A stretch of 64,000 bases of DNA from Burkholderiales bacterium. Lineage in GTDB: Bacteria; Pseudomonadota; Gammaproteobacteria; Burkholderiales; SG8-39. The translations under genes and the position numbers were made by a program. The DNA lies in contig JAOSJV010000010.1 in assembly GCA_027493935.1 (NCBI GenBank), positions 814,483 through 878,482 of the forward strand, written 5' to 3'. Within the stretch, counting starts at the first letter, position 1. Every line of letters begins with the position of its first letter. Below, one piece after another: positions 10,742 through 64,000 of this stretch. The notes beneath the pieces were generated by a model. The model made no database searches, had not been told where the DNA came from, and saw nothing but the letters and a program-made list of their open reading frames with translations.

Positions 10742-11898
10742 TGTTCTGATGCATTAATTAGTGGCACTTTTATGACGCCTGTTTGTCTCATGGTAAGTTC
10801 ATTACCAGGAGACAGTGATGGGTCGTGGAAGAGCGCTGCCGAAGCTGGAACTGACCCTCGAGGAGAGCAACCGCTTGGTCGAGTGGGCGCGCCGGCGCAC
10901 CACGGCGCTGGCGCTGCGGGCGCGCATCGTGCTCGGTTGCGCGCAAGGGGGCGAACAATACGCAAGTGGCGCAACGCTTGGGGGTGAAGCAGCAGACGGT
11001 AGGCAAGTGGCGGGGGCGTTTCGTCGCGCAGCGGCTCGATGGTTTGCTCGATGCGCCTCGTCCCGGACAGCCGCGCAAGATCAGCGACGCGAAGATCGAG
11101 GAGGTGCTGGCAATGACCCTTGAGCGTCGGCCCAAGCAGGCCACGCACTGGAGCACGCGGCTGATGGCCAAGGCGAGCGGCTTGAACCAGACGGCGGTGC
11201 TGCGCATTTGGCGGGCTTTCGGGTTGCAGCCGCATCGGGCCGAGACCTTCAAGCTCTCGACCGATCCGCTGTTCATCGACAAGGTGCGTGACATCGTCGG
11301 CCTGTACTTGGCCCCGCCGACCCATGCGGTGGTGCTGTGCGTGGACGAGAAGTCGCAGATCCAGGCCCTGGATCGCACCCAACCGCTGTTGCCGCTGTCC
11401 TTTGGGGTGCCCGAGCGGCGCAGCCATGACTATGTGCGCTACGGCACCACCACCTTGTTCGCGGCGCTCGATCTGGCCACCGGCAAGGTCATCGGCGAGT
11501 TGCATCGACGTCATCGCAGCAGCGAGTTCCTGAAGTTCTTGCGCACCATCGAGCAGAGCGTGCCCGCGCAGCTCGACATTCACCTGGTCATGGATAACTA
11601 CGGCACCCACAAGTCCCCGACGGTCAAGGCGTGGTTCGCCCGCCACCGCCGCTACCACCTGCACTTCACCCCGACCTCCGGATCGTGGCTCAACCTCGTG
11701 GAGCGCTGGTTCGCCATCCTGAGCCAACGCCAGATCAAACGCGGATCGCATCGCAGCACCCTCGAGCTCGAGAGGGCGATCCGCAACTTCCTCGACCTTC
11801 ACAATCAAGACCCCAAGCCATTCGTGTGGCACAAGAGCGCCGACGAGATCATCGAGTCAGTCGGCCGCTTTTGTACGCGAATTAACGAATCAGTACAC
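10741..11898 (+). mobile_element. IS630-family insertion sequence (1158 bp) with imperfect terminal inverted repeats and a TA target duplication
   Basis: Left end GTGTTCTGATGCATTAATTAG. The reverse complement of the right end is GTGTACTGATTCGTTAATTCG. It is flanked by TA (10739-10740) and TA (11899-11900). It encodes a DDE transposase of IS630 type. Confidence 0.9.
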
Positions 11899-11901
11899 TA
11901 G
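10818..11901 (+). pseudogene. IS630-family transposase, split into two frames at G5 run 10946-10950
   Basis: Frame A: [44 protein letters not shown]. Frame B continues ..[24 protein letters not shown] (HTH) ...[15 protein letters not shown]...[18 protein letters not shown]...[19 protein letters not shown] (DDE). Removing one G joins them. Confidence 0.85.
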
Positions 11902-11950: not shown

Positions 11951-14056
11951 GTGCCACAGTATCTCGTCGGCATCGACATCGGCGGGACGTTCACCGACTG
12001 CGTGATCGTCGACGACCGCGGGCGCATGCTGTCCACCAAGGTTCCGTCGACCCCGGACGACTTCGCGCAGGGCATGATGGACTCGATGCGCGTCGGTGCG
12101 GAGGCGCTAGGCATCGGCCTGGAGGCGTTCTGCCGCGCGATCCGGTTCCTCTCGCACGGGACCACCGTCGGCACCAACACGATCATCCAGAAGCGCGGCG
12201 CGCGGGTCGGCCTGATCACGACCAAGGGCCACGAGGACGCGATCCACATCATGCGCGGCTCGCGCGGCCACACCGGCAGGGACATCCGCAAGGTGGTGCA
12301 CTTCCCGGAGACCGCCAAGCCCGCGCCGATCGTTCCGAAGCGGCTGATCCGCGGCGTGTCCGAGCGGGTCGACTGCTTCGGTGAGATCGTCGTGGCGCTG
12401 AACGAGGCCGAGACCGAGCGCGCGATCCGCGCGCTCGTCGAGGCGGGCGTGGAGGCGGTCGCGATCTGCTTCCTGTGGTCGTTCCGCAACCCGCGTCACG
12501 AGCGGCGTGTCGCGGAGATGGTGAAATCCATCGCGCCCGGACTGTTCGTGACGTGCTCGGTCGACATCGCCCCGCGCTGGGGCGAGTACGAGCGGGTGAC
12601 CGCGACCGCGCTGAACGCCTATCTCGGCCCGATCATGACCGGCTACCTGGCGCGCCTCGACGGCGTGCTGACGAAGCTCGGCTACCATCACGGCCTGCAG
12701 ATCACCCAGTGCGGCGGCGGCACGATCTCGGTCGCGCGCGCGACCGAGGCGCCGCTGCTCACGCTCGACTCCGGTCCGGTGGCGGGCGTCACCGCCTCGC
12801 TGTACCTCGGCGGGGCGATGGGCGACCGCAACATCATCACCACCGACATGGGCGGCACGTCGTTCGACGTGTCGATCGTCCACGAGGGCAAGCCGGCCTA
12901 TTCGTTCATCAGCAACACCGACCAGTACGAGTACTTCCTGCCCAAGGTGGACATCCAGGCGATCGGCTCCGGCGGCGGCAGCCTGGTGCGCGTCGACCCT
13001 GCGGCGCGCGCCATGAAGGTGGGCCCGGACAGCGCCGGCGCGTTCCCCGGCCCGGTCGCCTACCAGCGCGGCGGCACGGTGCCCACGGTCACCGACGCCC
13101 AACTCGTGCTCGGCTACCTCGACCCGGACAAGTTCGCCGGCGGACGCATGAAGCTGGATCGGGGCGCCGCGATGCGCGCGATCGAGACGATCGCCAAGCC
13201 GCTCGGCATGGACGCGGTCGAGTGCGCGGCCGGCATCTGCCGCATCGTCGAGCTGCAGATGGCCGATATCATCCGCAAGGTCACCGTCGAGAAGGGCTAC
13301 GATCCGCGAGATTTCGTGCTCTATGCGTTCGGCGGCGCCGGCCCCGCGCACGCCGGCGTGTTCGCCTACGAGCTCGGCATCCGCAAGGTGATCATACCGC
13401 AGCGCAGGGTCGCCTCGACCTGGTGCGCGTTCGGGGCCGCGGCGGCCGACGTGCTGCACATCTACGAGCACACCGAGATTCTGCCGACGCCGGTGCCGGC
13501 CGAGCACATCAACCGCAACCTCGCCCGGCTCGAGGCCGAGGCGCGCCGGCGCATGGCAGCCGAGGGCATCGCGCGCCCCCGCCAGCGCCTCGAGTTCTCG
13601 CTCGACGTGCGCCACAAGGGGCAAATCAACGAGGTCGAGGTACCGCTCGCGGCGCGCCGGCTGCCAGCGCGCTACGAGCCGCGGCTAAGGGCCGATTTCG
13701 TCAAGCGCTATGAGCAGCTCTACGGGCGCGGCGCCGCGCTGCCCGGCGCGCAGCTCGAGATCGTCGCCTGCCGCCTGCGCGCGCGCGCGCTCACGCCGCG
13801 ACCCAAGCTCGTGCGCTCGAAGAAGGCCACCGCCGCGATTCCGCGCGCCGCGGTCCGGCCCGCACGCCAGATCTACTGGTCAGACCTCGAGCGCTACCGC
13901 CGGACCCCGGTGTACGACGGCGAGCGCCTCGCGGCGGGCAACCGCATCGCCGGACCGGCGATCGTCGAGACCGCGGACACGACCGTCGTGGTCCATCCCG
14001 GCCGCCGGCTGCGGGTCGATCCGCTCGGCAACTTCGAGATCACCTTCGGCAAGTGA
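11951..14056 (+). CDS. Hydantoinase A / oxoprolinase family protein (acetone-carboxylase beta-like subunit)
   Basis: GAGGAGG RBS and GTG 11951. N-terminal ASKHA signature YLVGIDIGGTFTDCVIVDD, then TDMGGTSFDVS and GSGGGS. 701 aa, intact. Confidence 0.9.
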   Translation: MPQYLVGIDIGGTFTDCVIVDDRGRMLSTKVPSTPDDFAQGMMDSMRVGAEALGIGLEAFCRAIRFLSHGTTVGTNTIIQKRGARVGLITTKGHEDAIHIMRGSRGHTGRDIRKVVHFPETAKPAPIVPKRLIRGVSERVDCFGEIVVALNEAETERAIRALVEAGVEAVAICFLWSFRNPRHERRVAEMVKSIAPGLFVTCSVDIAPRWGEYERVTATALNAYLGPIMTGYLARLDGVLTKLGYHHGLQITQCGGGTISVARATEAPLLTLDSGPVAGVTASLYLGGAMGDRNIITTDMGGTSFDVSIVHEGKPAYSFISNTDQYEYFLPKVDIQAIGSGGGSLVRVDPAARAMKVGPDSAGAFPGPVAYQRGGTVPTVTDAQLVLGYLDPDKFAGGRMKLDRGAAMRAIETIAKPLGMDAVECAAGICRIVELQMADIIRKVTVEKGYDPRDFVLYAFGGAGPAHAGVFAYELGIRKVIIPQRRVASTWCAFGAAAADVLHIYEHTEILPTPVPAEHINRNLARLEAEARRRMAAEGIARPRQRLEFSLDVRHKGQINEVEVPLAARRLPARYEPRLRADFVKRYEQLYGRGAALPGAQLEIVACRLRARALTPRPKLVRSKKATAAIPRAAVRPARQIYWSDLERYRRTPVYDGERLAAGNRIAGPAIVETADTTVVVHPGRRLRVDPLGNFEITFGK

Positions 14057-24153: not shown

Positions 24154-24864
24154 GTGACGCAAGGCCAGACCGCGCTCGAGCTCGCCCCGCTCGTCCTCGC
24201 CATGCTCGGATTCGTCGGCGGCCATTTCGTGCTCTCGTGGCCCGTCGTGCGTGGCCGGCTGGTCGCCGCGCTCGGCGAGACGCCGTTCCTCGTCGTGTAC
24301 TCGCTCGTCGCCGCCGCCTTCCTGGTCTGGACGGTCGTCGCGTACCGCGCGGCGCCCTACATCGCGCTGTGGGAGCTCGGCGCGGCCGGGCGCGCGTTCG
24401 CGCTCGTGGTGATGCCCTTGGCGCTCGTACTGGCCGTGGTCGGGCTCGCGAGCCCGAGCCCGACCGCCGTCGGCGGCGAGCGCGCGCGCGATCTCGGGCG
24501 CGCCGTGCGCGGCATCACGACCATCACGCGCCACCCGTTCCTCTGGGGTGCCGCGCTTTGGGCGCTCGCCCATCTCGCCGCGAACGGGGATGCGGCGGCG
24601 CTGATTCTCTTCGGCGGCATGCTGGTCCTCGCGCTCGCCGGCATGGCGGCGATCGACCACAGGCGCGCGGCGCGGCTGGGCGAAGGCTGGCGTGCGTTCG
24701 CCGATCGCACCTCGGCGACGCCGTTCGCCGCGGCGGCGGCCGGACGCGTCGCGGTCGACTGGCGGGGCATCGGATGGGCGCGCCCGGCCGCGGGGCTCGT
24801 ACTCTACGCAGTGCTCCTCTATGCGCACCGGTGGCTGTTCGGCGTGCCCGTCCTCGCCGGCTGA
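24154..24864 (+). CDS. NnrU-family membrane protein
   Basis: GTG 24154. Polytopic protein with GITTITRHPFLWGAALWALAHLAANGD and AAIDHRRA, as in NnrU. Confidence 0.75.
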   Translation: MTQGQTALELAPLVLAMLGFVGGHFVLSWPVVRGRLVAALGETPFLVVYSLVAAAFLVWTVVAYRAAPYIALWELGAAGRAFALVVMPLALVLAVVGLASPSPTAVGGERARDLGRAVRGITTITRHPFLWGAALWALAHLAANGDAAALILFGGMLVLALAGMAAIDHRRAARLGEGWRAFADRTSATPFAAAAAGRVAVDWRGIGWARPAAGLVLYAVLLYAHRWLFGVPVLAG

Positions 24865-50778: not shown

Positions 50779-50872
50779 TCGAGCGGCCGCTCGTCGTGAA
50801 AGACGCGCACCGCCGTCGGCCGCCCGCCGGAGAAGGTGCTCGAGGTGCTGTGAAGCGGTCGCGCCAGCGCGA

Positions 50873-51334
50873 TCAGCGGCCGGCGGTGCGGAACTTCTTG
50901 AGGAAGGCCTCGCGCGCCGCGCCGCTCGGGATCTTCTCGGCCAGCCGCTGGACGAAGTCGCGCGGCCCCGATGCCCGCCCGGTCTCGAGCACCACCAGCC
51001 CGCGGGCGTACATCGCAAACGCCTCGAGCAGCGCCTCGCGCGCGCGGCGCTCGGTCGCCGAATCGACCGGCCGCGGCCGGCCGGCGTCGCGCCGGTCGAA
51101 CGGCGCCTTCGGCAGCCCGGCCGCGCCGTAGGCGCGACGCAGGAAGTCGCGCCGGCTCTCGTCGTCGTTGATGCGCGCGGCCACCGCGTGACACAGGCCC
51201 TGCGGGTCCTTCGCCGCGCGCGTGGCGCGCCGGACCATCGTGAGCGCGTACGCTCCCGCGTAGGGCGTCAAGATCTGCGCGAGGCGCTCGATCAGCGCCG
51301 CGTCGAACGTCTTCTGTGCCTGTGCCTCGCTCAT
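50873..51334 (-). CDS. Hypothetical protein (153 aa) with an apparent internal duplication
   Basis: ATG 51334 (MSEAQAQKTFDAALIERL...). Two segments look similar by eye: ..YAGAYALTMVRRATRAAKDPQGLCHAVAARINDDESRRDFLRRA and ..YARGLVVLETGRASGPRDFVQRLAEKIPSGAAREAFLKKF. No family recognised. Confidence 0.5.
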   Translation of the reverse strand: MSEAQAQKTFDAALIERLAQILTPYAGAYALTMVRRATRAAKDPQGLCHAVAARINDDESRRDFLRRAYGAAGLPKAPFDRRDAGRPRPVDSATERRAREALLEAFAMYARGLVVLETGRASGPRDFVQRLAEKIPSGAAREAFLKKFRTAGR

Positions 51335-52050: not shown

Positions 52051-52126
52051 TTTGATCAGCCGCGTAGCGCGAGGCCGCGCGATCGTGCAGACTCCGCGCG
52101 TCCGATTCCGAACGAAGGAGGACCCA

Positions 52127-53101
52127 GTGAAGCGGATCTTCACCCTGCTGACCGCGCTCGCGCTGCTCGCCTGCGCCAACCTCGCCGCGGCGCAGCCCGG
52201 ATTCCCGTCGCGGCCGCTGCGCATCTACGTGCCCTTCCCGCCGGGCGGCGGCACCGACGTGGCTGCGCGCGCGCTCGGCATCGAGCTCGGCAAGAGCCTC
52301 GGCCAGCCGGTCGTGGTGGAGAACCGGCCGGGCGGCAACTCCGTGATCGCCACCGACATCGTCGCCAAGGCGGCGCCGGACGGCCATTCGCTGCTGCTCA
52401 CCACCGACTTTCACGCGATCAACGCGGCGTTCGGCATCCCGCTGCCGTACGATTCGCTCAAGGACTTCACCTTCGTCGCGCGCGTGAGCACCTCGCCGCT
52501 GATGCTCGTCGCGCACCCGTCGACCGGCGCGAAGACGCTCGCCGGGCTCGTCGCCGCGGCCAGGGCGCGCCCCGACCACTACAGCTTCGCCTCGCTCGGC
52601 ACGAGCAGTCCGCACCATCTCGGCTTCGAGTGGTTCAAGTCGCTCGCCGGGATCGGCCTGCTCGACGTGCCGTACAAGGGCGGCGGGCCGGCCTCGGCCG
52701 ACGTGCTGGGCGGCCAGGTGGATCTCATGTTCATCGTCGCAGCGAACGGCATCCGCCACGCGCGCGCCGGCAAGCTCGTCGCGCTCGCGGTGACCGGCCC
52801 GACGCGCGCCACCGCGGCACCCGAGACGCCGACCTTCGCCGAGTCGGGCTACCCCGACTTCGTGATGCTCAACTGGTACGGCATACTCGCGCCGGCCGGC
52901 ACGCCGCCCGAGGTCGTGAAGCGCCTGAACGCCGAGATCGTGAAGGCGCTCGGCGTGCCCGAGGTCGCGCGGCGGCTCGCCGGGGTCGGCGTCGACGCGG
53001 CGCCCACCACGCCGGAGGGGCTCGAAGCGTTCGTGCGAAGCGACATCGACAAGTACCGCCGCATCATCGCGCGCGTCGGCGCGAAGGCCGAGGGGCGGTA
53101 G
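52127..53101 (+). CDS. Bug-family (TctC-like) tripartite tricarboxylate transporter substrate-binding protein
   Basis: AAGGAGG RBS and GTG 52127. A signal peptide, then FPSRPLRIYVPFPPGGGTDVAARAL...VVVENRPGGN...APDGHSLLL...LDVPYKGGGPA, the canonical Bug signature. Confidence 0.9.
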   Translation: MKRIFTLLTALALLACANLAAAQPGFPSRPLRIYVPFPPGGGTDVAARALGIELGKSLGQPVVVENRPGGNSVIATDIVAKAAPDGHSLLLTTDFHAINAAFGIPLPYDSLKDFTFVARVSTSPLMLVAHPSTGAKTLAGLVAAARARPDHYSFASLGTSSPHHLGFEWFKSLAGIGLLDVPYKGGGPASADVLGGQVDLMFIVAANGIRHARAGKLVALAVTGPTRATAAPETPTFAESGYPDFVMLNWYGILAPAGTPPEVVKRLNAEIVKALGVPEVARRLAGVGVDAAPTTPEGLEAFVRSDIDKYRRIIARVGAKAEGR

Positions 53102-56720: not shown

Positions 56721-57554
56721 ATGAACGAAGCGAAGAGCCTCGGCGACGCGGTCGCCGCTGCGGCGACCGCCATCATGGATCGCGCGTTGGCCTATCTGCC
56801 GAGCGTTCTCGGCGCGGTCCTGCTGCTCGTCGCCGGCTGGCTGCTCGGGCGCATCCTGCGCGCGGTCACGGTGCGCGCGGTGCTCCTGCTCGACGCCCTG
56901 CTCGCGCGCATGACCCGATCCGCCGGCGCCGGGCGCCTGCGCTTCGACCGGTCCTCGACGATCCTCGGCACCATCGTCTTCTGGGTGGTGGTCCTCTTCT
57001 TCATCACGGCGGCGACTCACGTGCTCGGCCTGCAGAGCTTCACGCAGTGGCTCGCCCGCCTGCTCGACTACCTGCCGACGCTCGCCGCAGGCGTGCTGAT
57101 CCTGATCGGCGGCTACATCCTGTCGCGGTTCCTCGCCGATCTCGTGCGCGCGACCGCCGCGCGCCTCGCGCCTGCGCAGCGCGCCGCGCTCGCGCATATC
57201 GTGCAGGGCGCGGTGCTGGTGGCCGCGGTGCTCGTGGGCGCCGACCAGATCGGCATCCGGGTCACATTCCTGGTGATCCTGGTCGCCGCCGTGCTCGCGG
57301 CCGGTGTCGGCGGCGTGACCCTTGCGGTCGGCGTCGGCGCGCGCGACTACGTGGCCAACCTGATCGGCGCGCACTACCTGCGGCAGGTGTTCGAGGTCGG
57401 CCAGCGCGTGCGGATCGCCGGTCACGAGGGCCGGATCCTGGAGGTGACCGCGACCTCGATCGTGCTCGAGACCGACGTCGGCCGCGTCTCGCTGCCGGCG
57501 CGCGTCTATCACGAGCAGCCGATCGTGCTCGTCGCGCGCGCCGGCGATGGCTGA
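56721..57554 (+). CDS. Small MscS-like mechanosensitive channel family protein
   Basis: Several TM helices, then the beta-domain VGQRVRIAGHEGRILEVTATSIVLETDVGRVSLPARV (MscS GDxIxIxGxxGxVxxI...). The stop overlaps the next ATG (ATGGCTGA). Confidence 0.65.
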   Translation: MNEAKSLGDAVAAAATAIMDRALAYLPSVLGAVLLLVAGWLLGRILRAVTVRAVLLLDALLARMTRSAGAGRLRFDRSSTILGTIVFWVVVLFFITAATHVLGLQSFTQWLARLLDYLPTLAAGVLILIGGYILSRFLADLVRATAARLAPAQRAALAHIVQGAVLVAAVLVGADQIGIRVTFLVILVAAVLAAGVGGVTLAVGVGARDYVANLIGAHYLRQVFEVGQRVRIAGHEGRILEVTATSIVLETDVGRVSLPARVYHEQPIVLVARAGDG

Positions 57555-58398
57555 CGCCGCCGCGCTCACCCTCGCCTTTATCGAGGCGCACCCGGTCGAC
57601 GCGGCGCGCGTGCTCGAGACACTGCCAGCGCCCGAGTCCTCCGCGCTCTTCGCGCGCGTGCCGCCGCGGCTCGGCGCGCCGGTGCTCGCCGCGATGCTGC
57701 CGCCCACGGCGGCCCGCAACGTGCTCGCGCTCGACGACGAGCGCGGCATGGCGCTCCTCGCCGCCCTGGGCGCACAGGCGGCGGTCGCGGTGCTGCGCCA
57801 CGTGCCCGAGCCGCGCCGCTCGGCGCTGATCGACGGCCTGCCGACCGTGTCGGCGGTGGCCTCGCGCATGCTGCTCGGCTATCCGGAGGACTCGGTCGGC
57901 GCGTGGACCGATACCGACATCGTGGCTCTGCCGCCGGAGGCGCGCGCCGCCGACGCGCTCGCGCGGGTGCGCGCCGCGCGCGACGACGCCTCGGTCGTCC
58001 ACGTGGTCGGACCGGGCGAGCGCCTGCTCGGACTGGTCGACCTCGCGACGCTCGTGCGCGCGCCCGAAACGGCCGACATGGGCCAGCTCATGCGGCGGCC
58101 CGAGGCGGTGCTCGCCGCTGTCGCGCCGCTCGGAGGTGCGGCAAGCCATCGCGGCTGGCTCCGGTCGAGTGTGCTGCCCGTGGTCGAGCGCGGCGACCGG
58201 CTGGTCGGCGTCTTGCGGCGCGGGACCCTCGCGCGCGCGCTGGCGCGCGGCGGCGGCCGGGCGAGCGTCGTCGTCAGTGCCGGGCTCGCCGAGACGCTCG
58301 GGCGCGGGTACTGGGACGCGCTGTCCGGGATCATTTCGGCCGCGGTCACCCTGCTGCCGCCCGCGCAGCGCATCAAAGAGGACTCCGATGAGCACTGA
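57547..58398 (+). CDS. MgtE-N plus CBS-pair cytosolic protein lacking the MgtE membrane domain
   Basis: AAALTLAFIEAHPVDAARVLETLPAPESSALFARV... (MgtE intracellular N-domain pattern), then MLLGYPEDSVGAWTDTDIVAL...VVHVVGPGERLLGLVDLATL...LPVVERGDRLVGVLRR (CBS pair). The gene ends 11 nt inside mgtE. Confidence 0.65.
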   Translation: MADAAALTLAFIEAHPVDAARVLETLPAPESSALFARVPPRLGAPVLAAMLPPTAARNVLALDDERGMALLAALGAQAAVAVLRHVPEPRRSALIDGLPTVSAVASRMLLGYPEDSVGAWTDTDIVALPPEARAADALARVRAARDDASVVHVVGPGERLLGLVDLATLVRAPETADMGQLMRRPEAVLAAVAPLGGAASHRGWLRSSVLPVVERGDRLVGVLRRGTLARALARGGGRASVVVSAGLAETLGRGYWDALSGIISAAVTLLPPAQRIKEDSDEH

Positions 58399-59729
58399 CG
58401 CGGCGGATTCCCAGACTACGGCAACCGGCGCGGCGTCCGCGGTCGCGGCGCTCAACCGCCGCTTCCTGCTCGACTATCCGCATGAGGCGGCACGGCGCCT
58501 CGAGGCGATGCCGGTCGCGGACGCCGCCGAGCTCCTCGCGACGCAGCCGCCGCACGCCGCAGTGCGCGCCTGGCAGGCGCTCGCGGCCGATGTCGCCCGT
58601 GCCGTCCTCGAACACGTGCCCGACGCGCTCGCGCAGCGGCTGCTCAGCGACGCCGAGCCGGCGGCGAGCGCGGCGGTGCTCGCGCAGCTCGACCAGGCGG
58701 CGCGGGCGGTACGCCTCGCCGCGCTCGATCCGCAGGTCGCGCAGGAGCTGCGCGAGCTGCTCGCCTATCCGGAGGACTCCGCCGGCCGGCTGATGGACCC
58801 GCAGGTCAGCCCGCTCCGGGCGCAGCTCAGCGTGGCCGAGGCGCTCGCCCGGCTGCGCACGATCAAGCGCCGCGGCCTGCGCGAGCTCTTCGTGGTGGAC
58901 GACGCGGGTCGCCTGACCGGCCGCGTCGAGATCCAGGACCTCGCGGTCGCCGGCGAGGCGCTACCGCTGCGCGAGATCACGCGCGGGCTGATCGCGGCAG
59001 TGCGGGACCTCGATCTGCGCGAGGACGTGGTCGCGGCGCTGCAGCAGCAGCCGATCACCGAGCTGCCGGTGGTGACGAGCGAGGGCCGTTTCGTCGGCGT
59101 GATCCGGCAGGCCGCGCTCGTCTCGGCGGTCGCGCAGGAGGCGAGCCTCGACATCCAGACGATGGTCGGCGCGAGCCGCGACGAGCGCGCGCTCTCCGGG
59201 CCGCTCTTCGCGGTGCGCAAGCGCCTGCCCTGGCTGCAGATCAACCTCCTCACCGCGTTCCTCGCCGCGGCGGTCGTCGGCCTGTTCGAGAGCACCATCG
59301 CGAAGTTCACCGCGCTCGCGGTGCTGCTGCCGGTGGTGGCCGGCCAATCCGGCAACGCCGGCGCGCAGGCGCTGGCGGTAACCATGCGCGGGCTCTTCCT
59401 GCGCGAGATCAGCCTGCGGCACTGGCCGCGCATGGTGTGGAAGGAGGCGAGCATCGGCTTCGTGAACGGCATCGCGGTGGCAGCCACCACTGCGGTCGGC
59501 GTCTGGGTGTGGAGCGGCTCCGTGGGGCTCGTGCTGGTGATCTCGAGCGCGATGGTGATCGCGATGGTGATCGCCGGGGTCGCCGGCGCGGCGGTGCCGA
59601 TCGTGCTGCGCCGCTTCGGCCAGGACCCGGCGCAGTCCCTCCTCGATCGTGCTCACCACCGTCACCGACGTCGCCGGCTTCTTTTCGTTCCTCGGCATAG
59701 CGACGCTGCTCGCCGGCATGCTCGGCTGA
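58388..59729 (+). pseudogene. mgtE: Magnesium transporter MgtE; one frame break at C3 59637-59639, about 30 codons before the stop
   Basis: MgtE-N, then LLAYPEDSAGRLMDPQV and a CBS pair, then the TM domain LLPVVAGQSGNAGAQALAVTMRGL. After ...RRFGQDPAQS the conserved tail (SSIVLTTVTDVAGFFSFLGIATLLAGMLG*) continues in the +1 frame to TGA 59727-59729. Confidence 0.9.
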
Positions 59730-59750
59730 AGCGGCGCGGCGCCGGCGGCG

Positions 59751-61478
59751 TCAGGCGCTCGCGGCTTCGTGCACGGCGGCGCTGCGGCCCTGCGCCTCGG
59801 CCTGCAGACGCTTCAGCCGGTACGCAAGCTGCGCTCGGGTGAGCCCGAGCATGCGCGCGGCCGAGGAGAGATTTCCGCGCGCGCGGCTCACCGCCGTCTC
59901 GATCAGCCTCGCCTCGACCTGATCGAGCGTCATCGCGCCGGAGAGCACGGCTTCGCAAACCGCGTCACCCTCGTCGCTGCCGCGCACGTCTAGCGACCCA
60001 TAGCGGTCGATGCCGATCTCGCCCGCCTTCCCGCCGTCCCACGAAGTGAACAGATGCTCGATCTCCATGCGCCCGCCGTGCGGGGCCAGGATGACGCCGC
60101 GCTCCACGGTGTTCTGCAGCTCGCGGATGTTCCCCGGCCAGGAGTAGGCGAGCAGCGCCTTCTTCGCCTTGTCGGTGATTCCCGCGATCTTCTTGCCGTG
60201 GATCACCGAGTACTTCTCGACCAGCCGCTTGAAGAGGAGCCGGGTGTCCTCCGGACGCTCGCGCAGCGGCGGGATGTGGATCTGGTACGCGTTCAGCCGG
60301 TAATAGAGATCCGAGCGGAACTTACCCTGCGCGACGAGCTCCTGCAGGTTGCGATTGGTCGCCGCCACCAGCCGGACGTTGACCTTGCGCGTGCGATGAT
60401 CGCCGAGGCGCTCCACCTCCCCGTCCTGCAGTACGCGCAGCAGCTTGGCCTGCGCCGCGAGCGGCAGGTCGCCGACCTCGTCGAGGAAGAGCGTCCCGCC
60501 GTGCGCGCGCTCGAACCGGCCAGGGCGTGAGGCCTGCGCGCCGGTGTAGGCGCCTTTCTCGACGCCGAAGAGCTCCGACTCCACGAGCTCCTGGGGAATC
60601 GCGGCGCAGTTCACCGCCACGAGCGGCTCGCTGGCGCGCGGCCCCATCTCGTGCAGGCGCCGCGCGAACATCTCCTTGCCCACCCCGGTTTCGCCGAGCA
60701 GCAGCACGGTGATGTGCGTGCCGGCGGCCTTCTTCAACAGCTCGTAGGCGAGGCGGAAGCCCGGCGAGTCGCCCACCATGTCCCCGGGCAGCCGCTCCTT
60801 CTCGCCGATCGTCGAGCGCAGCTCCGCGACCTGCGCCTGCAGGTCGAGCAGCTGGTTCGCGATCGACTCGGACTTGAAGTAGCGCATGTCGGCCTCGGCG
60901 TCGTTCCACTCCTCGACCGGCTTGCCGACGATCATGCAGTGGCTGTCGCCCGCACCGCTGCACTCGGTCTCCTTGTACAGGATCGGTCGCCCCATGAAGG
61001 CCGACGTGTAGCCGCACGCGTAGCCGATCTGGGTCCAGCAGACCGGTTCGTGGTGGATGCCGAAGTCGCGCCGGTGCGTCTGGCCCTCCCACGAGTTCTC
61101 CCACAGGAACTCGCCGTAGAACCGGCCGCGCGCGCGGTCGACCTCGAGCTTGATCGGCGTCACCAGCACGATGCCCTCGAGCGTGTGCAGCTGCGGCCCG
61201 GTCATGAACGCCTCCAGGTCGCTCTTGCACGCGGTGCGGCTCCGCGCGAGCTCGGCGTCGCGCACCCCCGACGCGTAGCCCATGCGCGTGAGCAGCCCGC
61301 GCGCGCGCGCGAGCCCGAGCGTGTCGATCAGCTCCTTGCGCAGCGACGCCTGCGCGTCCGCGTGCACGAGCAGCATGCGGTGCTCGTGCAGCCAGATGTG
61401 CCCGGTTTCGGCGCAGAAATGGACGTGCGAGCGCAGATCGCCCGCATCGGGCTGCGCCATTTTCTTCAATCGAGCCAT
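59751..61478 (-). CDS. Sigma-54-dependent XylR/DmpR-class transcriptional activator (PdeR-like phenol-responsive regulator)
   Basis: 575 aa. N-terminal XylR_N/V4R-type sensor (FLWENSWEG...[41 protein letters not shown]). AAA+ core ([49 protein letters not shown]). C-terminal Fis-type HTH ([22 protein letters not shown]). Confidence 0.9.
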
Positions 61479-61763
61479 GGCCCCCCTGCCGACCGCGACG
61501 GATACGCCCGATGGCCCCGCTTCTTCTCGGTAACAGGACGTACGGAATTTACGAATTGATTAAAGCATAAACCGCAGAAGTCGCGATAGGTGCCTAAATT
61601 CATCAAATAATCATGTTGCGCTGCGGCGTAAGTCGGGCGATTCGGCACCGTGCCGCCTCAGGCGCCGAGCGGCCGTGACCTCGACCGAGCGGCTCACCTG
61701 ACTCGTGTCCGCAGGCGTAGTCGCGCGCAACCCGCGGGTGAGCGACGGTATTGTGCGCCGCGA

Positions 61764-61779
61764 TGGCACACCGCTTGCA
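61764..61779 (+). promoter_or_regulatory. Sigma-54 (-24/-12) promoter TGGCAC-N5-TTGCA of ppsA
   Basis: Read directly: TGGCAC (61764-61769), ACCGC, TTGCA (61775-61779). The GG-N10-GC spacing is exact. It lies 55 nt upstream of the ppsA ATG and faces away from the activator gene. Confidence 0.85.
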
Positions 61780-61833
61780 GTCAGACTCCTCTATCCGGGC
61801 GCATCGCCGTACCGGACCCGGAGAGGAGGAGCT

Positions 61834-63666
61834 ATGCCGACGTTTCCGAACCCGCACGACATCAAGACCATTCCGGGCACCGAAGGCTGGGAGCGGATGT
61901 ACCCGTACCAGTACCAGTTCGTCACCGACGACCCCGAGCGCAAGGCCTACGAGGAGCAGACCTTCTGGTTCTACGACGGGCTGCACTACCCCGAGCCGCT
62001 CTACCCGTTCGACACGATCTGGGACGAGGCGTGGTTCCTCGCGCTCTCGCAGTACAACAACCGCATCTTCCAGGTCCCGCCGGTACGCGGCGTCGACCAC
62101 CGCATCATCAACGGCTACGTGTACATCTCGCCGGTCCCGGTGAAGAACCCCGCCGACATCGAGGCGCGCGCGCCGCACTTCATGGAGCGCGCCGGCTATT
62201 ACTACAAGAACTGGGACGCGCTGGAAGAGAAGTGGAAGCAGAAGATGAAGAACACGATCGCCGAGCTCGAAGCGCTTGCGATCCCGACGCTGCCCGACAT
62301 GGAGGACCTACGCGTAGTGACCGACGGCCTCGGCGAATCGAAGGGCTTCCACCTGCTCAAGGCCTACGACGACCTGATCAACCTCGGCATCAAGTGCTGG
62401 CAGTACCACTTCGAGTTCCTGAACCTCGGCTACGCCGCGTACGTCTTCTTCCTCGACTTCGTGCAGAAGCAGTTCCCGAGCATCCCGGTGCAGCGCGTGA
62501 CGCAGATGATCTCCGGCATCGACGTCATCATGTATCAGTCCGACGAGGAGCTGAAGAAGCTCGCCCGCAAGGCGATCGAGCTCGGCGTGGAGCAGGCCGT
62601 CACGTTCAGCCAGGAGTGGAGCGAGGTCGAGCCGGCGCTGAAGAAGCTGCCGAAGGGCAAGGAGTGGCTCGCCGCGCTCGACAAGGCGCGCGACCCGTGG
62701 TTCTACATCTCGACCGGCACCGGCTGGTACCACCACGACCGATGCTGGAACGACGCGATGAACGTGCCGCTCTCGGGCATCGCCACCTACATCGGCAAGC
62801 TCAAGCAGGGCGTGAACATCGAGCGGCCGATGGACCAGGTGCGCGCCGAGCGCGACCGCATCGTCAAGGAATACCGCGACCTGATCGAGCGCGACGAGGA
62901 CCGCAAGACATTCGACGAGCTGCTCGGCACAGCGAAGACCGTGTTTCCGTACGTCGAGAACCACCTCTTCTACGTCGAGCACTGGTTCCACTCGATCTTC
63001 TGGAACAAGGTGCGCGAGGTGGCAGCGATCCTGAAGGAGCACGGCCTGATCGGCGACATCGAGGACGTATGGTACCTGCGGCGCGACGAGGTGAAGTCGG
63101 CGCTGTGGGACGTCGTCACCGCATGGGCGACCGGCACCACGCCGCGCGGCACCAGGACCTGGCCGAAGGAGATCGAGTGGAGGAAGGGCGTGATGCAGAA
63201 GTTCCGCGAGTGGAGCGCCCCGCCCGCCATCGGCACTGCGCCGGAGGTGATCCAGGAGCCCTTCACCATCGTGCTCTGGGGCGTGACCAACAAGTCGCTC
63301 GCCGACTGGGCGGCGGTGCAGCAGGTGAAGGATCCCTCGACGATCAGCGTGCTGAACGGCTTCGCCGGCAGCCCCGGCGTGATCGAGGGCCGCGCGCGCG
63401 TGTGCCGGACGGTGGACGAGGTGCGCCAGCTCGAGGAAGGCGAGATCCTGGTGGCGCCGACCACGTCGCCCTCGTGGGCGCCGGCGTTCGCCAAGATCAA
63501 GGCGTGCGTGACCGACGTCGGCGGGGTGATGAGCCACGCCGCGATCGTCTGCCGCGAGTACGGGATGCCGGCGGTGGTCGGAACCGGGCACGCGACCAAG
63601 GTGATCAAGACGGGCATGCTCCTGCGCGTCGACGGCTCGACCGGCGCGGTGAATATCGCCCGGTAG
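61834..63666 (+). CDS. ppsA: Phenylphosphate synthase alpha subunit (PEP-utilizing enzyme family, His-carrier subunit)
   Basis: GGAGAGGAGG RBS and ATG 61834. 610 aa. N-terminus MPTFPNPHDIKTIPGTEGWERMYPYQYQFVTDDPERK...FWFYDGLHYPEPLYPFDTIWDEAW and a C-terminal swivel His domain ILVAPTTSPSWAPAFAKIKACVTDVGGVMSHAAIVCREYGMPAVVGTG. From memory this is colinear with Thauera aromatica PpsA. Confidence 0.85.
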   Translation: MPTFPNPHDIKTIPGTEGWERMYPYQYQFVTDDPERKAYEEQTFWFYDGLHYPEPLYPFDTIWDEAWFLALSQYNNRIFQVPPVRGVDHRIINGYVYISPVPVKNPADIEARAPHFMERAGYYYKNWDALEEKWKQKMKNTIAELEALAIPTLPDMEDLRVVTDGLGESKGFHLLKAYDDLINLGIKCWQYHFEFLNLGYAAYVFFLDFVQKQFPSIPVQRVTQMISGIDVIMYQSDEELKKLARKAIELGVEQAVTFSQEWSEVEPALKKLPKGKEWLAALDKARDPWFYISTGTGWYHHDRCWNDAMNVPLSGIATYIGKLKQGVNIERPMDQVRAERDRIVKEYRDLIERDEDRKTFDELLGTAKTVFPYVENHLFYVEHWFHSIFWNKVREVAAILKEHGLIGDIEDVWYLRRDEVKSALWDVVTAWATGTTPRGTRTWPKEIEWRKGVMQKFREWSAPPAIGTAPEVIQEPFTIVLWGVTNKSLADWAAVQQVKDPSTISVLNGFAGSPGVIEGRARVCRTVDEVRQLEEGEILVAPTTSPSWAPAFAKIKACVTDVGGVMSHAAIVCREYGMPAVVGTGHATKVIKTGMLLRVDGSTGAVNIAR

Positions 63667-63672
63667 CGGCGC

Positions 63673-63706
63673 CACGCCCCGCGGCGGGCAGCCGCCGCGG
63701 GGCGTG
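63673..63706 (+). other. Perfect 15-bp-stem hairpin between ppsA and ppsB
   Basis: CACGCCCCGCGGCGG-GCAG-CCGCCGCGGGGCGTG, read directly. No T-tract follows, so it is an intercistronic stem-loop rather than a canonical terminator. Confidence 0.7.
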
Positions 63707-63721
63707 CGCGGTCCAAGCGAA

Positions 63722-64000
63722 ATGGAACGCTACATGGCGGAAACCGCTCCGGCGACCGCGGCCGGGCCTGCGTCCGGCGCCGCGGCCGAACTCGTCTGGT
63801 TCCAGGAAGTGGACAAAGGCGCGGTCGCCCTGGTGGGCGGCAAGTGCGCCTCGCTCGGCGAGCTCATCAACGCCGGCGTGCGCGTGCCGCCGGGGTTTGC
63901 GCTCACCACCGCGGGCTATCGGCGCTTCGTGCACGAGGGCGGCATCGCGTCGGCGATCCGCGAGCTCACCGCCGGCATCGATCCGCAGGACATCGACGCG
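63722..64000 (+). CDS. ppsB: Phenylphosphate synthase beta subunit (PEP synthase N-terminal ATP-grasp-like), 5' part; continues beyond the window
   Basis: ATG 63722 or 63734. The sequence ...VWFQEVDKGAVALVGGKCASLGELINAGVRVPPGFALTTAGYRRF... matches the PEP/pyruvate-binding domain start (GGKxAxLGE). The frame is open to base 64000. Confidence 0.8.
   Translation, partial: MERYMAETAPATAAGPASGAAAELVWFQEVDKGAVALVGGKCASLGELINAGVRVPPGFALTTAGYRRFVHEGGIASAIRELTAGIDPQDIDA

Follow-up and report, generated by a model that had tools for sequence, protein, structure and literature searches.

A probable phenylphosphate synthase module under a phenol-type sensor in an uncultured Burkholderiales lineage, with a variant carboxylase gene set in its relatives

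Does the end of a contig from an uncultured Burkholderiales bacterium encode the activation of phenol by phosphorylation, and how would such a pathway continue? The question is raised by the last 4.25 kb of a 64,000-nt stretch of contig JAOSJV010000010.1 (the window), in which an earlier reading of the letters without database searches (hereafter the sequence-only reading) had recognized a phenylphosphate synthase module. Three reading frames in this part carry the codon-position G+C signature of real genes (third-position G+C, GC3, of 0.87-0.94). A regulator gene at 59751-61478 on the minus strand is divergent from ppsA at 61834-63666 on the plus strand, and the 5' end of ppsB follows from 63734 on the plus strand. 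Open reading frames and Pfam domains confirmed that a 575-aa enhancer-binding protein with a XylR_N/V4R N-terminus is encoded divergently from a 610-aa protein. We conclude that the window edge very probably represents the regulatory head of a phenol-inducible phenylphosphate synthase operon together with its first two genes. This assignment is supported because the family score and identity of PpsA, the promoter and the regulator pocket all agree. The gene identities, domains, catalytic and ligand residues and promoter were computed here, and so was their conservation across about 80 related loci.

The ppsA gene, for the alpha subunit of phenylphosphate synthase (610 aa), starts with an ATG at 61834 preceded by GGAGAGGAGGAG and ends with a stop at 63666. 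The peptides quoted in the sequence-only reading from this protein of the phosphoenolpyruvate (PEP)-utilising family (TIPGTEGWERMYPYQYQF..., FWFYDGLHYPEPLYPFDTIWDEAW and GGVMSHAAIVCREYG) were all found in its translation. PpsA is built of an N-terminal substrate domain of about 500 aa and a C-terminal swivel domain with a phospho-histidine. The swivel-His domain, also predicted earlier, is the single Pfam domain detected (PEP-utilizers, PF00391, residues 533-604, 9.1e-27); it contains His568 in GGVMSHAAIVCREYG, aligned with His569 of Aromatoleum PpsA. With the equivalog model NF006152 the window PpsA scored 1237.5 bits and the Aromatoleum PpsA 1307.6 bits (cutoff 723). The protein is 77.6% identical to PpsA of a canonical cluster of Aromatoleum sp. 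and 97.5% identical to PpsA of the metagenome-assembled genome (MAG) SJ14. Family score and identity both bear out phenylphosphate synthase, the identity proposed before. Phenol, alkylphenol and hydroxyphenylethanone kinases form distinct clades in published phylogenies (PMC9618137), and the window PpsA was grouped with the phenol enzymes because of its 77.6% identity to the canonical-cluster protein. That Aromatoleum locus (L003) encodes a XylR-type regulator, PpsA, a PPDK_N protein, a CBS protein, UbiD, HAD, UbiD, Phenyl_P_gamma, UbiD and a flavoprotein (UbiX), and two of its UbiD proteins pass curated models, "phenylphosphate carboxylase subunit beta" with 1098 bits and the corresponding "alpha" model with 1158 bits.

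The next gene, ppsB for the beta subunit, runs on the plus strand from 63734 to the window end at 64000 (89 codons), with an alternative in-frame ATG at 63722. These 89 aa contain ALVGGKCASLGELINAG and match PPDK_N (1.6e-14), which agrees with the PEP-synthase ATP-grasp N-terminus noted in the sequence-only reading. The partial PpsB has 79.8% identity to SJ14 PpsB (full length 372 aa) and 59% to Aromatoleum PpsB over the aligned part.

The regulator (575 aa, 59751-61478, minus strand) is of the PheR/DmpR type of phenol-sensing sigma-54 activators. Its Pfam domains, XylR_N (1.1e-39), V4R (2.8e-11), Sigma54_activat (5.6e-70), AAA_lid_14 and HTH_8, were all above cutoff. CapR, the phenol sensor of P. 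putida (PDB 6iy8), matched residues 17-477 with E=1.5e-158 and 532 bits; the sensor domains of PoxR and MopR matched with E=2.5e-68 and 2.5e-55, respectively. The counterpart in the canonical Aromatoleum cluster is 72.8% identical. The AAA+ domain has the Walker A motif GETGVGKE at 262 and the loop GAYTGA at 309, a variant that replaces GAFTGA in 62 of 65 regulators of the clade. With the score of 595 bits the regulator stays below the NCBIfam MobR cutoff of 999, as does the Aromatoleum regulator with 622.

Comparison with CapR and the PheR orthologue showed that the phenol-anchoring His98 and Trp126 are kept. Cys147, Cys173, Cys181 and the Glu of KETEC are kept as well and align to the zinc-site region of CapR (KEVSC...DKC). 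The roles of the His/Trp anchor and of the Cys/Glu zinc-site residues have been described for MopR-type sensors (PMC10715001). In its sensor pocket motifs, GYACGYTS among them, the regulator is identical to the Aromatoleum PheR orthologue, and both have a Thr where MopR has Ser166. In A. aromaticum EbN1 the deletion of pheR abolishes ppsA1 expression, and PheR responds to phenol from a threshold of 30-50 nM, p-cresol and p-ethylphenol not being inducers (PMC10715001).

The regulator and ppsA are separated by a divergent control region of 355 bp (61479-61833), read from the sequence; the corresponding distance is ~270-490 bp in most related loci. A sigma-54 promoter had been claimed here, and its -24/-12 element was located as TGGCAC-ACCGC-TTGCA (TGGCACACCGCTTGCA) at 61764-61779 on the plus strand, 55 nt before the ppsA ATG. 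No other exact match to TGGCAC-N5-TTGCA occurs within the 64 kb, where 0.02 matches are expected by chance; at least one match was obtained in 2 of 100 shuffled sequences. An equivalent TGGCAY-N5-TTGC element stands 49-120 nt before ppsA in 61 of the 80 related loci, including the canonical Aromatoleum locus. In consensus, spacing and conservation the element at 61764-61779 is a predicted sigma-54 promoter.

A candidate upstream activator site, AATTCATCAAAT, was found at approximately 61599-61610 (plus strand, placed from offsets), ~165 nt upstream of the promoter's -24 element. With one mismatch it matches the palindrome AATTGATCAAAT / ATTTGATCAAAT, which may be comparable to the upstream activator sites of XylR/DmpR. 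TGATCAA is the most widespread 7-mer upstream of ppsA (60 of 80 loci), and copies of TTGATCAAAT with at most one mismatch are present in 50 of the 61 loci with a recognisable promoter, mostly 140-290 nt upstream of the -24 element and in a few cases at -100 to -130. A scan of 59500-64000 gave no sigma-70 promoter, and its sole terminator-like site (61587-61571, minus strand) was at chance level.

These elements suggest how the module might work. In the Thauera enzyme the beta subunit transfers the diphosphoryl group of ATP to a His conserved in the alpha subunit, which by itself exchanges phenol and phenylphosphate and therefore holds the phenol site. The products are phenylphosphate, AMP and inorganic phosphate, and a CBS-domain gamma subunit stimulates the reaction (PMC6114531). 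The parts for the beta-subunit transfer and for the alpha-subunit phenol step are present in the window, are intact as far as it reaches and stand under a phenol-type sensor and a predicted sigma-54 promoter. By analogy with the Thauera/Aromatoleum biochemistry, from which both the reaction and the inducer in the window organism are taken, phenol would be bound by the activator in its V4R pocket, and the activator would then assemble on the upstream site and use ATP to open the promoter at 61764-61779 for transcription of ppsA, ppsB and the genes past the window. PpsB, through its ATP-grasp domain, would move the beta,gamma-diphosphoryl group of ATP onto His568 of the PpsA swivel domain. After phosphate has left, the remaining phosphoryl group would pass to the hydroxyl of phenol held in the large N-terminal domain, to give phenylphosphate, AMP and inorganic phosphate.

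Several points weigh against this assignment. NCBIfam names the family NF006152 only "hypothetical protein", and the PpsA used as reference is an uncharacterised Aromatoleum sp. orthologue picked by its canonical cluster, not the characterised protein of T. aromatica K172. Of ppsB the window contains 89 codons, so that ppsC and the carboxylase genes would lie past base 64000. No genes for 4-hydroxybenzoate-CoA ligase, 4-hydroxybenzoyl-CoA reductase (hcr) or benzoyl-CoA reductase (bcr) were found in the 64 kb, and the case for the window organism is one of sequence. Could PpsA and PpsB then be a PEP synthase in split form (pyruvate, water dikinase) or a resistance enzyme of the rifampicin phosphotransferase type? 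Homologues do carry the names "pyruvate, water dikinase" and "PEP-utilizing enzyme", and the top hits by sequence in the PDB are rifampicin phosphotransferases that were deposited under the name "phosphoenolpyruvate synthase". However, these PDB matches are limited to residues ~500-608, and the models for PEP synthase, pyruvate phosphate dikinase and rifampicin phosphotransferase reach only 85-126 bits over the ~100-residue swivel domain, against cutoffs of 598-1700; the outcome that the sequence-only reading had named as fatal to its proposal, best matches to such enzymes, was thus not observed. The N-terminal 500 aa have no counterpart in such enzymes by sequence and matched no solved structure in the PDB sequence search. 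The gene context, a phenol-type sensor with a sigma-54 promoter and, in relatives, downstream UbiD, UbiX and PpsC genes, also speaks against them. Family scores and gene context together effectively refute this identity, and we give it hardly any credence. A dikinase acting on another phenolic compound or on an aromatic amine is a better candidate, yet still quite unlikely. Precedents exist for 4-cresol (CreHI), 4-hydroxyacetophenone/acetovanillone (HpeHI/AcvAB), catechol/hydroquinone and aniline (phenylphosphoamidate synthase), and some of these PpsAB homologues with other substrates occur in aerobes (PMC9618137, PMC7500099). The carboxylase part of related clusters has also diverged, with a PpcB-like protein that shares only 54% identity with Aromatoleum PpcB and with no alpha, gamma or delta subunits, and one position of the sensor pocket differs from MopR (Thr for Ser166). 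Against this stand the distinct clades of phenol, alkylphenol and hydroxyphenylethanone kinases mentioned above and the 77.6% identity of the window PpsA to the canonical-cluster protein: the alpha subunit of D. anilini has only 42% identity to its T. aromatica counterpart, and D. anilini extracts form phenylphosphate (PMC6114531). Biotin carboxylase genes of the Hpe/Acv/Xcc type were not seen near any related locus, and the pocket, its Thr included, is identical to that of the PheR orthologue, PheR being phenol-selective.

A phenylphosphate synthase module thus remains the preferred assignment, and the chemistry that it would perform is independent of oxygen. Anaerobic use by the window organism is an assumption on which nothing in the 64 kb bears. 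The module may be real and still belong to no anaerobic pathway, serving oxygen-independent phenol activation in an aerobic or facultative organism, with 4-hydroxybenzoate passing into aerobic or hybrid CoA-dependent routes, or with a role in detoxification. We regard this possibility, which is compatible with the phenylphosphate synthase assignment, as rather unlikely. The same cluster occurs in MAGs assigned to Ramlibacter, Polaromonas, Ideonella, Rubrivivax, Janthinobacterium, Acetobacteraceae and Beijerinckiaceae, several of these genera being usually considered aerobic, but MAG taxonomy says little about physiology. The flanks of related modules are not conserved and have no adjoining 4-hydroxybenzoyl-CoA reductase-like genes: among the big flanking open reading frames, which encode P-type ATPases, molybdopterin oxidoreductase, hydantoinase, DabA, FtsK and others, no reductase-like large subunits were found. 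In several loci, on the other hand, the module has as neighbours a gene of the benzoate-CoA ligase family (TIGR02262, 794 bits) and an ABC transporter. The window itself has no anaerobic aromatic genes; a search of its other ~60 kb for ppc, box and pobA genes yielded nothing beyond housekeeping and unrelated functions (glycine cleavage, fatty-acid oxidation, transporters, a transposase, hydantoinase, NnrU). The NnrU gene (24154-24864) counts on the anaerobic side, its family being linked to denitrification. The canonical phenylphosphate carboxylase is oxygen-sensitive (PMC6114531), which also argues against use in an aerobe.

How the operon would continue past base 64000 was judged from relatives. 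The exact PpsA product of the window had no record, and the regulator turned up only on a 2.3-kb Logan contig (SRR11288142); two exact-DNA scans of the metagenome collection yielded nothing, or just the 5-kb contig WBZR01012854 that was known already, and a scan of the genome collection gave a 98% relative rather than the source genome. A homologue search with PpsA gave thousands of matches in the sequence database, and we collected 80 loci from species-level genomes with PpsA at least 79% identical. The nearest relative is the Burkholderiales MAG SJ14 (JADLAV010000084, locus L001), whose regulator is 90.6% identical; the shared genes have 84-92% nucleotide identity, and the APH, acyl-CoA dehydrogenase and GST genes upstream are the same. 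In SJ14 the operon consists of ppsA, ppsB and genes for UbiD (503 aa), UPF0261 (419 aa), NUDIX, a CBS protein (232 aa), a 61-aa flavoprotein fragment and a metallophosphoesterase. Its UbiD passes the model "phenylphosphate carboxylase subunit beta" (TIGR02724, 580 bits, cutoff 469) and is the PpcB-like protein with 54% identity to Aromatoleum PpcB; its CBS protein is 58% identical to Aromatoleum PpsC. In two classifications of the 80 loci, 57-59 fell into this layout with one PpcB-like UbiD gene (type B) and 13 into the canonical layout (type A), the remainder being incomplete. All 13 type-A loci have four Ppc subunits. The window PpsA branches among the type-B members.

Gene content in type B was counted in the 44 loci whose sequence extends at least 4.5 kb past the UbiD gene. 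XylR, ppsB and the CBS protein (PpsC) are present in all 44, UPF0261 in 41, usually less than 140 nt from the UbiD stop, and UbiX in 40; a metallophosphoesterase was found in 12 and NUDIX in 9. No PpcA, PpcC or PpcD homologues were detected within 10 kb of the 57-59 type-B loci, even at E<=1. The sequence-only reading had also named a lack of carboxylase genes downstream as evidence against it; in the relatives a UbiD-family gene follows ppsB wherever the sequence reaches. The ppcBCAD set that it had expected there is probably not what follows, the closest relatives having only the PpcB-like gene and a gene of the UPF0261 kinase family in its place. On every point open to test, that first identification was right. 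Judged by these relatives, the window operon most likely continues with a single PpcB-like UbiD, a MarK-family UPF0261, PpsC and UbiX rather than with ppcBCAD.

Some loci depart from this pattern. In four (L070, L073, L074 and L078; three among the 44 counted and the fourth shorter) a 548-aa AMP-binding ligase takes the UPF0261 slot between the PpcB-like gene and ppsC. One of them is assigned to Ca. Aalborgicola. The regulator is at the far end of the cluster in L070, L074 and L078, and none was detected in L073. A further locus (L027) has a second divergent ppsA/ppsB pair (49% and 46% identity) upstream of its type-B cluster on the same contig, possibly a paralogous aromatic dikinase with another substrate. 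In SJ14, ~8-10 kb upstream of ppsA (L001 1-1699 and neighbours), an IclR regulator and a radical-SAM/SPASM protein are encoded together with two further UbiD-family proteins (549 and 501 aa); none of these was found in the window. The 549-aa UbiD is ~31-33% identical to all Ppc-type UbiDs and below every curated cutoff; a 52%-identical copy lies beside another type-B cluster (L012).

What could the UPF0261 protein contribute? MarK (Saro_1862) of Novosphingobium aromaticivorans phosphorylates phenolic hydroxyls with conversion of ATP to ADP, which in 2025 was the first catalytic function reported for UPF0261 (PMC12624787). The SJ14 UPF0261 protein aligned with MarK (PDB 9mpy) over the full length (E=2.8e-49), with an identity of roughly one third as judged by eye from the alignment, and it has Arg16 at the position of the activating E16K change in MarK. 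We tentatively put forward, while leaning somewhat against it, that an operon with a PpcB-like UbiD, a MarK-family kinase, PpsC and UbiX and without PpcA, PpcC and PpcD may represent a widespread way of carboxylating phenol that has gone undescribed, in which UPF0261 would take over the role of the missing Ppc subunits. At the carboxylase it might take charge of phenylphosphate's phosphoryl group and perhaps hand it on to ADP, where a delta-subunit phosphatase would waste it, or it might be a second, cheaper, ADP-forming phenol kinase. If the window operon continues as in its relatives, phenylphosphate would be converted to 4-hydroxybenzoate by such a variant carboxylase without alpha, gamma and delta subunits. 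Literature searches of partial coverage, which are no proof of novelty, on UPF0261 together with UbiD and on Burkholderiales phenylphosphate genes gave no description of the variant cluster.

If this proposal is true, phosphorylation-dependent phenol carboxylation would extend beyond the classical anaerobic degraders to many Burkholderiales and some Alphaproteobacteria, among them lineages taken to be aerobic. A functional variant would change how phenol carboxylation is scored in metagenomes and would give UPF0261 a second physiological context. Of the loci from species-level genomes that have a close PpsA, most (57-59) carry the cluster with one UbiD and a MarK-family protein, and the Thauera-type four-subunit cluster is the rarer one (13). 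This conserved, numerically dominant type-B layout is the part most worth follow-up, and the comparative result may matter more than the feature in the window.

Oxygen-independent degradation of phenol begins with phenylphosphate synthase, an enzyme that annotation routinely overlooks. PpsA homologues go under the names "PEP-utilizing enzyme", "pyruvate, water dikinase" or "hypothetical protein", and "phenol phosphorylase subunit alpha" was found on 1 of 120 among the matches listed. A published analysis of a Ca. Desulfobacillus MAG scored ppsA as missing (PMC8402940), and a MAG assigned to Ca. Desulfobacillus carries an 80%-identical PpsA homologue. The naming of PpsA is a systematic annotation gap. 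Once the module is recognised, an uncultured, high-G+C Burkholderiales lineage can be credited with phenol-degrading potential.

The 67-nt spacer between ppsA and ppsB contains a perfect G+C-rich hairpin with a 14-bp stem (63674-63705, plus strand; minimum free energy -50.8 kcal/mol, z = -4.9), and none of 200 shuffled sequences folded as well. The stem is identical in SJ14 and altered on both arms, still paired, in one related locus (L005); another (L008) and the canonical Aromatoleum locus have no hairpin. It is probably not a terminator because no T-run follows it, and it may be an element of mRNA processing or stability.

Next to the regulator lies an mgtE-like magnesium transporter gene (58436-59727, plus strand) with a change of frame just after ...GQDPAQS, the break being near 59632-59640. 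One frame continues as Arg-rich nonsense to 59842, overlapping the 3' end of the regulator gene, and the adjacent frame gives the expected ...SSIVLTTVTDVAGFFSFLGIATLLAGMLG*. The break is a 1-nt indel in TCCCTCCTC, from either an assembly error or a pseudogene. Compared with SJ14, an MscS-like gene and two MgtE-type genes (56721-59727) are inserted in the window between the APH gene and the regulator, as is a TctC/Bug receptor gene (52052-53101) between the DUF8082 homologue (50814-51314) and the GST gene. Farther away, a DDE_3/HTH_32 transposase gene (10966-11901, plus strand) lies in a patch of lower G+C (0.65 vs. ~0.71) directly before a gene of the hydantoinase/oxoprolinase A family (11951-14056, plus strand).

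Among known systems, the sensors DmpR, CapR, MopR and PoxR share with the window regulator the domain order, the His/Trp anchor and the Cys/Glu residues of the zinc region. They differ in that they control oxygen-dependent phenol hydroxylase operons, and the window clade has GAYTGA and a regulator under the MobR cutoff. The UPF0261 proteins of the relatives, encoded outside the window, resemble MarK in their full-length alignment and in a basic residue at position 16. MarK, in contrast, works on acetovanillone with a biotin carboxylase and a phosphatase as partners, not with a UbiD enzyme.

The clusters of Geobacter metallireducens GS-15 and Desulfatiglans anilini are alike in having ppsA and ppsB with a homologue of ppcB (beta) only and no gamma subunit, which was taken by the authors to suggest a different carboxylase mechanism; a UPF0261 gene is not mentioned in these two reports (PMC6114531, PMC1924859). 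Their PpsA is far more distant, as the 42% between the D. anilini and T. aromatica proteins indicates, and their clusters include genes encoding 4-hydroxybenzoyl-CoA ligase and reductase that are usually missing from the Burkholderiales module. Compared with the canonical pps-ppc clusters of Thauera and Aromatoleum, the closest relatives of the window have a PpcB-like UbiD and UPF0261 between ppsB and ppsC, with ppcA, ppcC and ppcD absent within 10 kb, and the host is an uncultured Burkholderiales bacterium of ~71% G+C, not a member of the Rhodocyclales. What is shared with PpsABC-PheR of Thauera aromatica and Aromatoleum aromaticum EbN1 is the divergent XylR/DmpR-type activator, the sigma-54 promoter and the order ppsA-ppsB. 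Relative to the canonical Aromatoleum sp. cluster, PpsA (77.6%), the PpsB N-terminus (~59%) and the regulator (72.8%) are conserved together with the catalytic His and the sensor pocket. What is new here is a representative of this well-characterised system in an uncultured Burkholderiales lineage.

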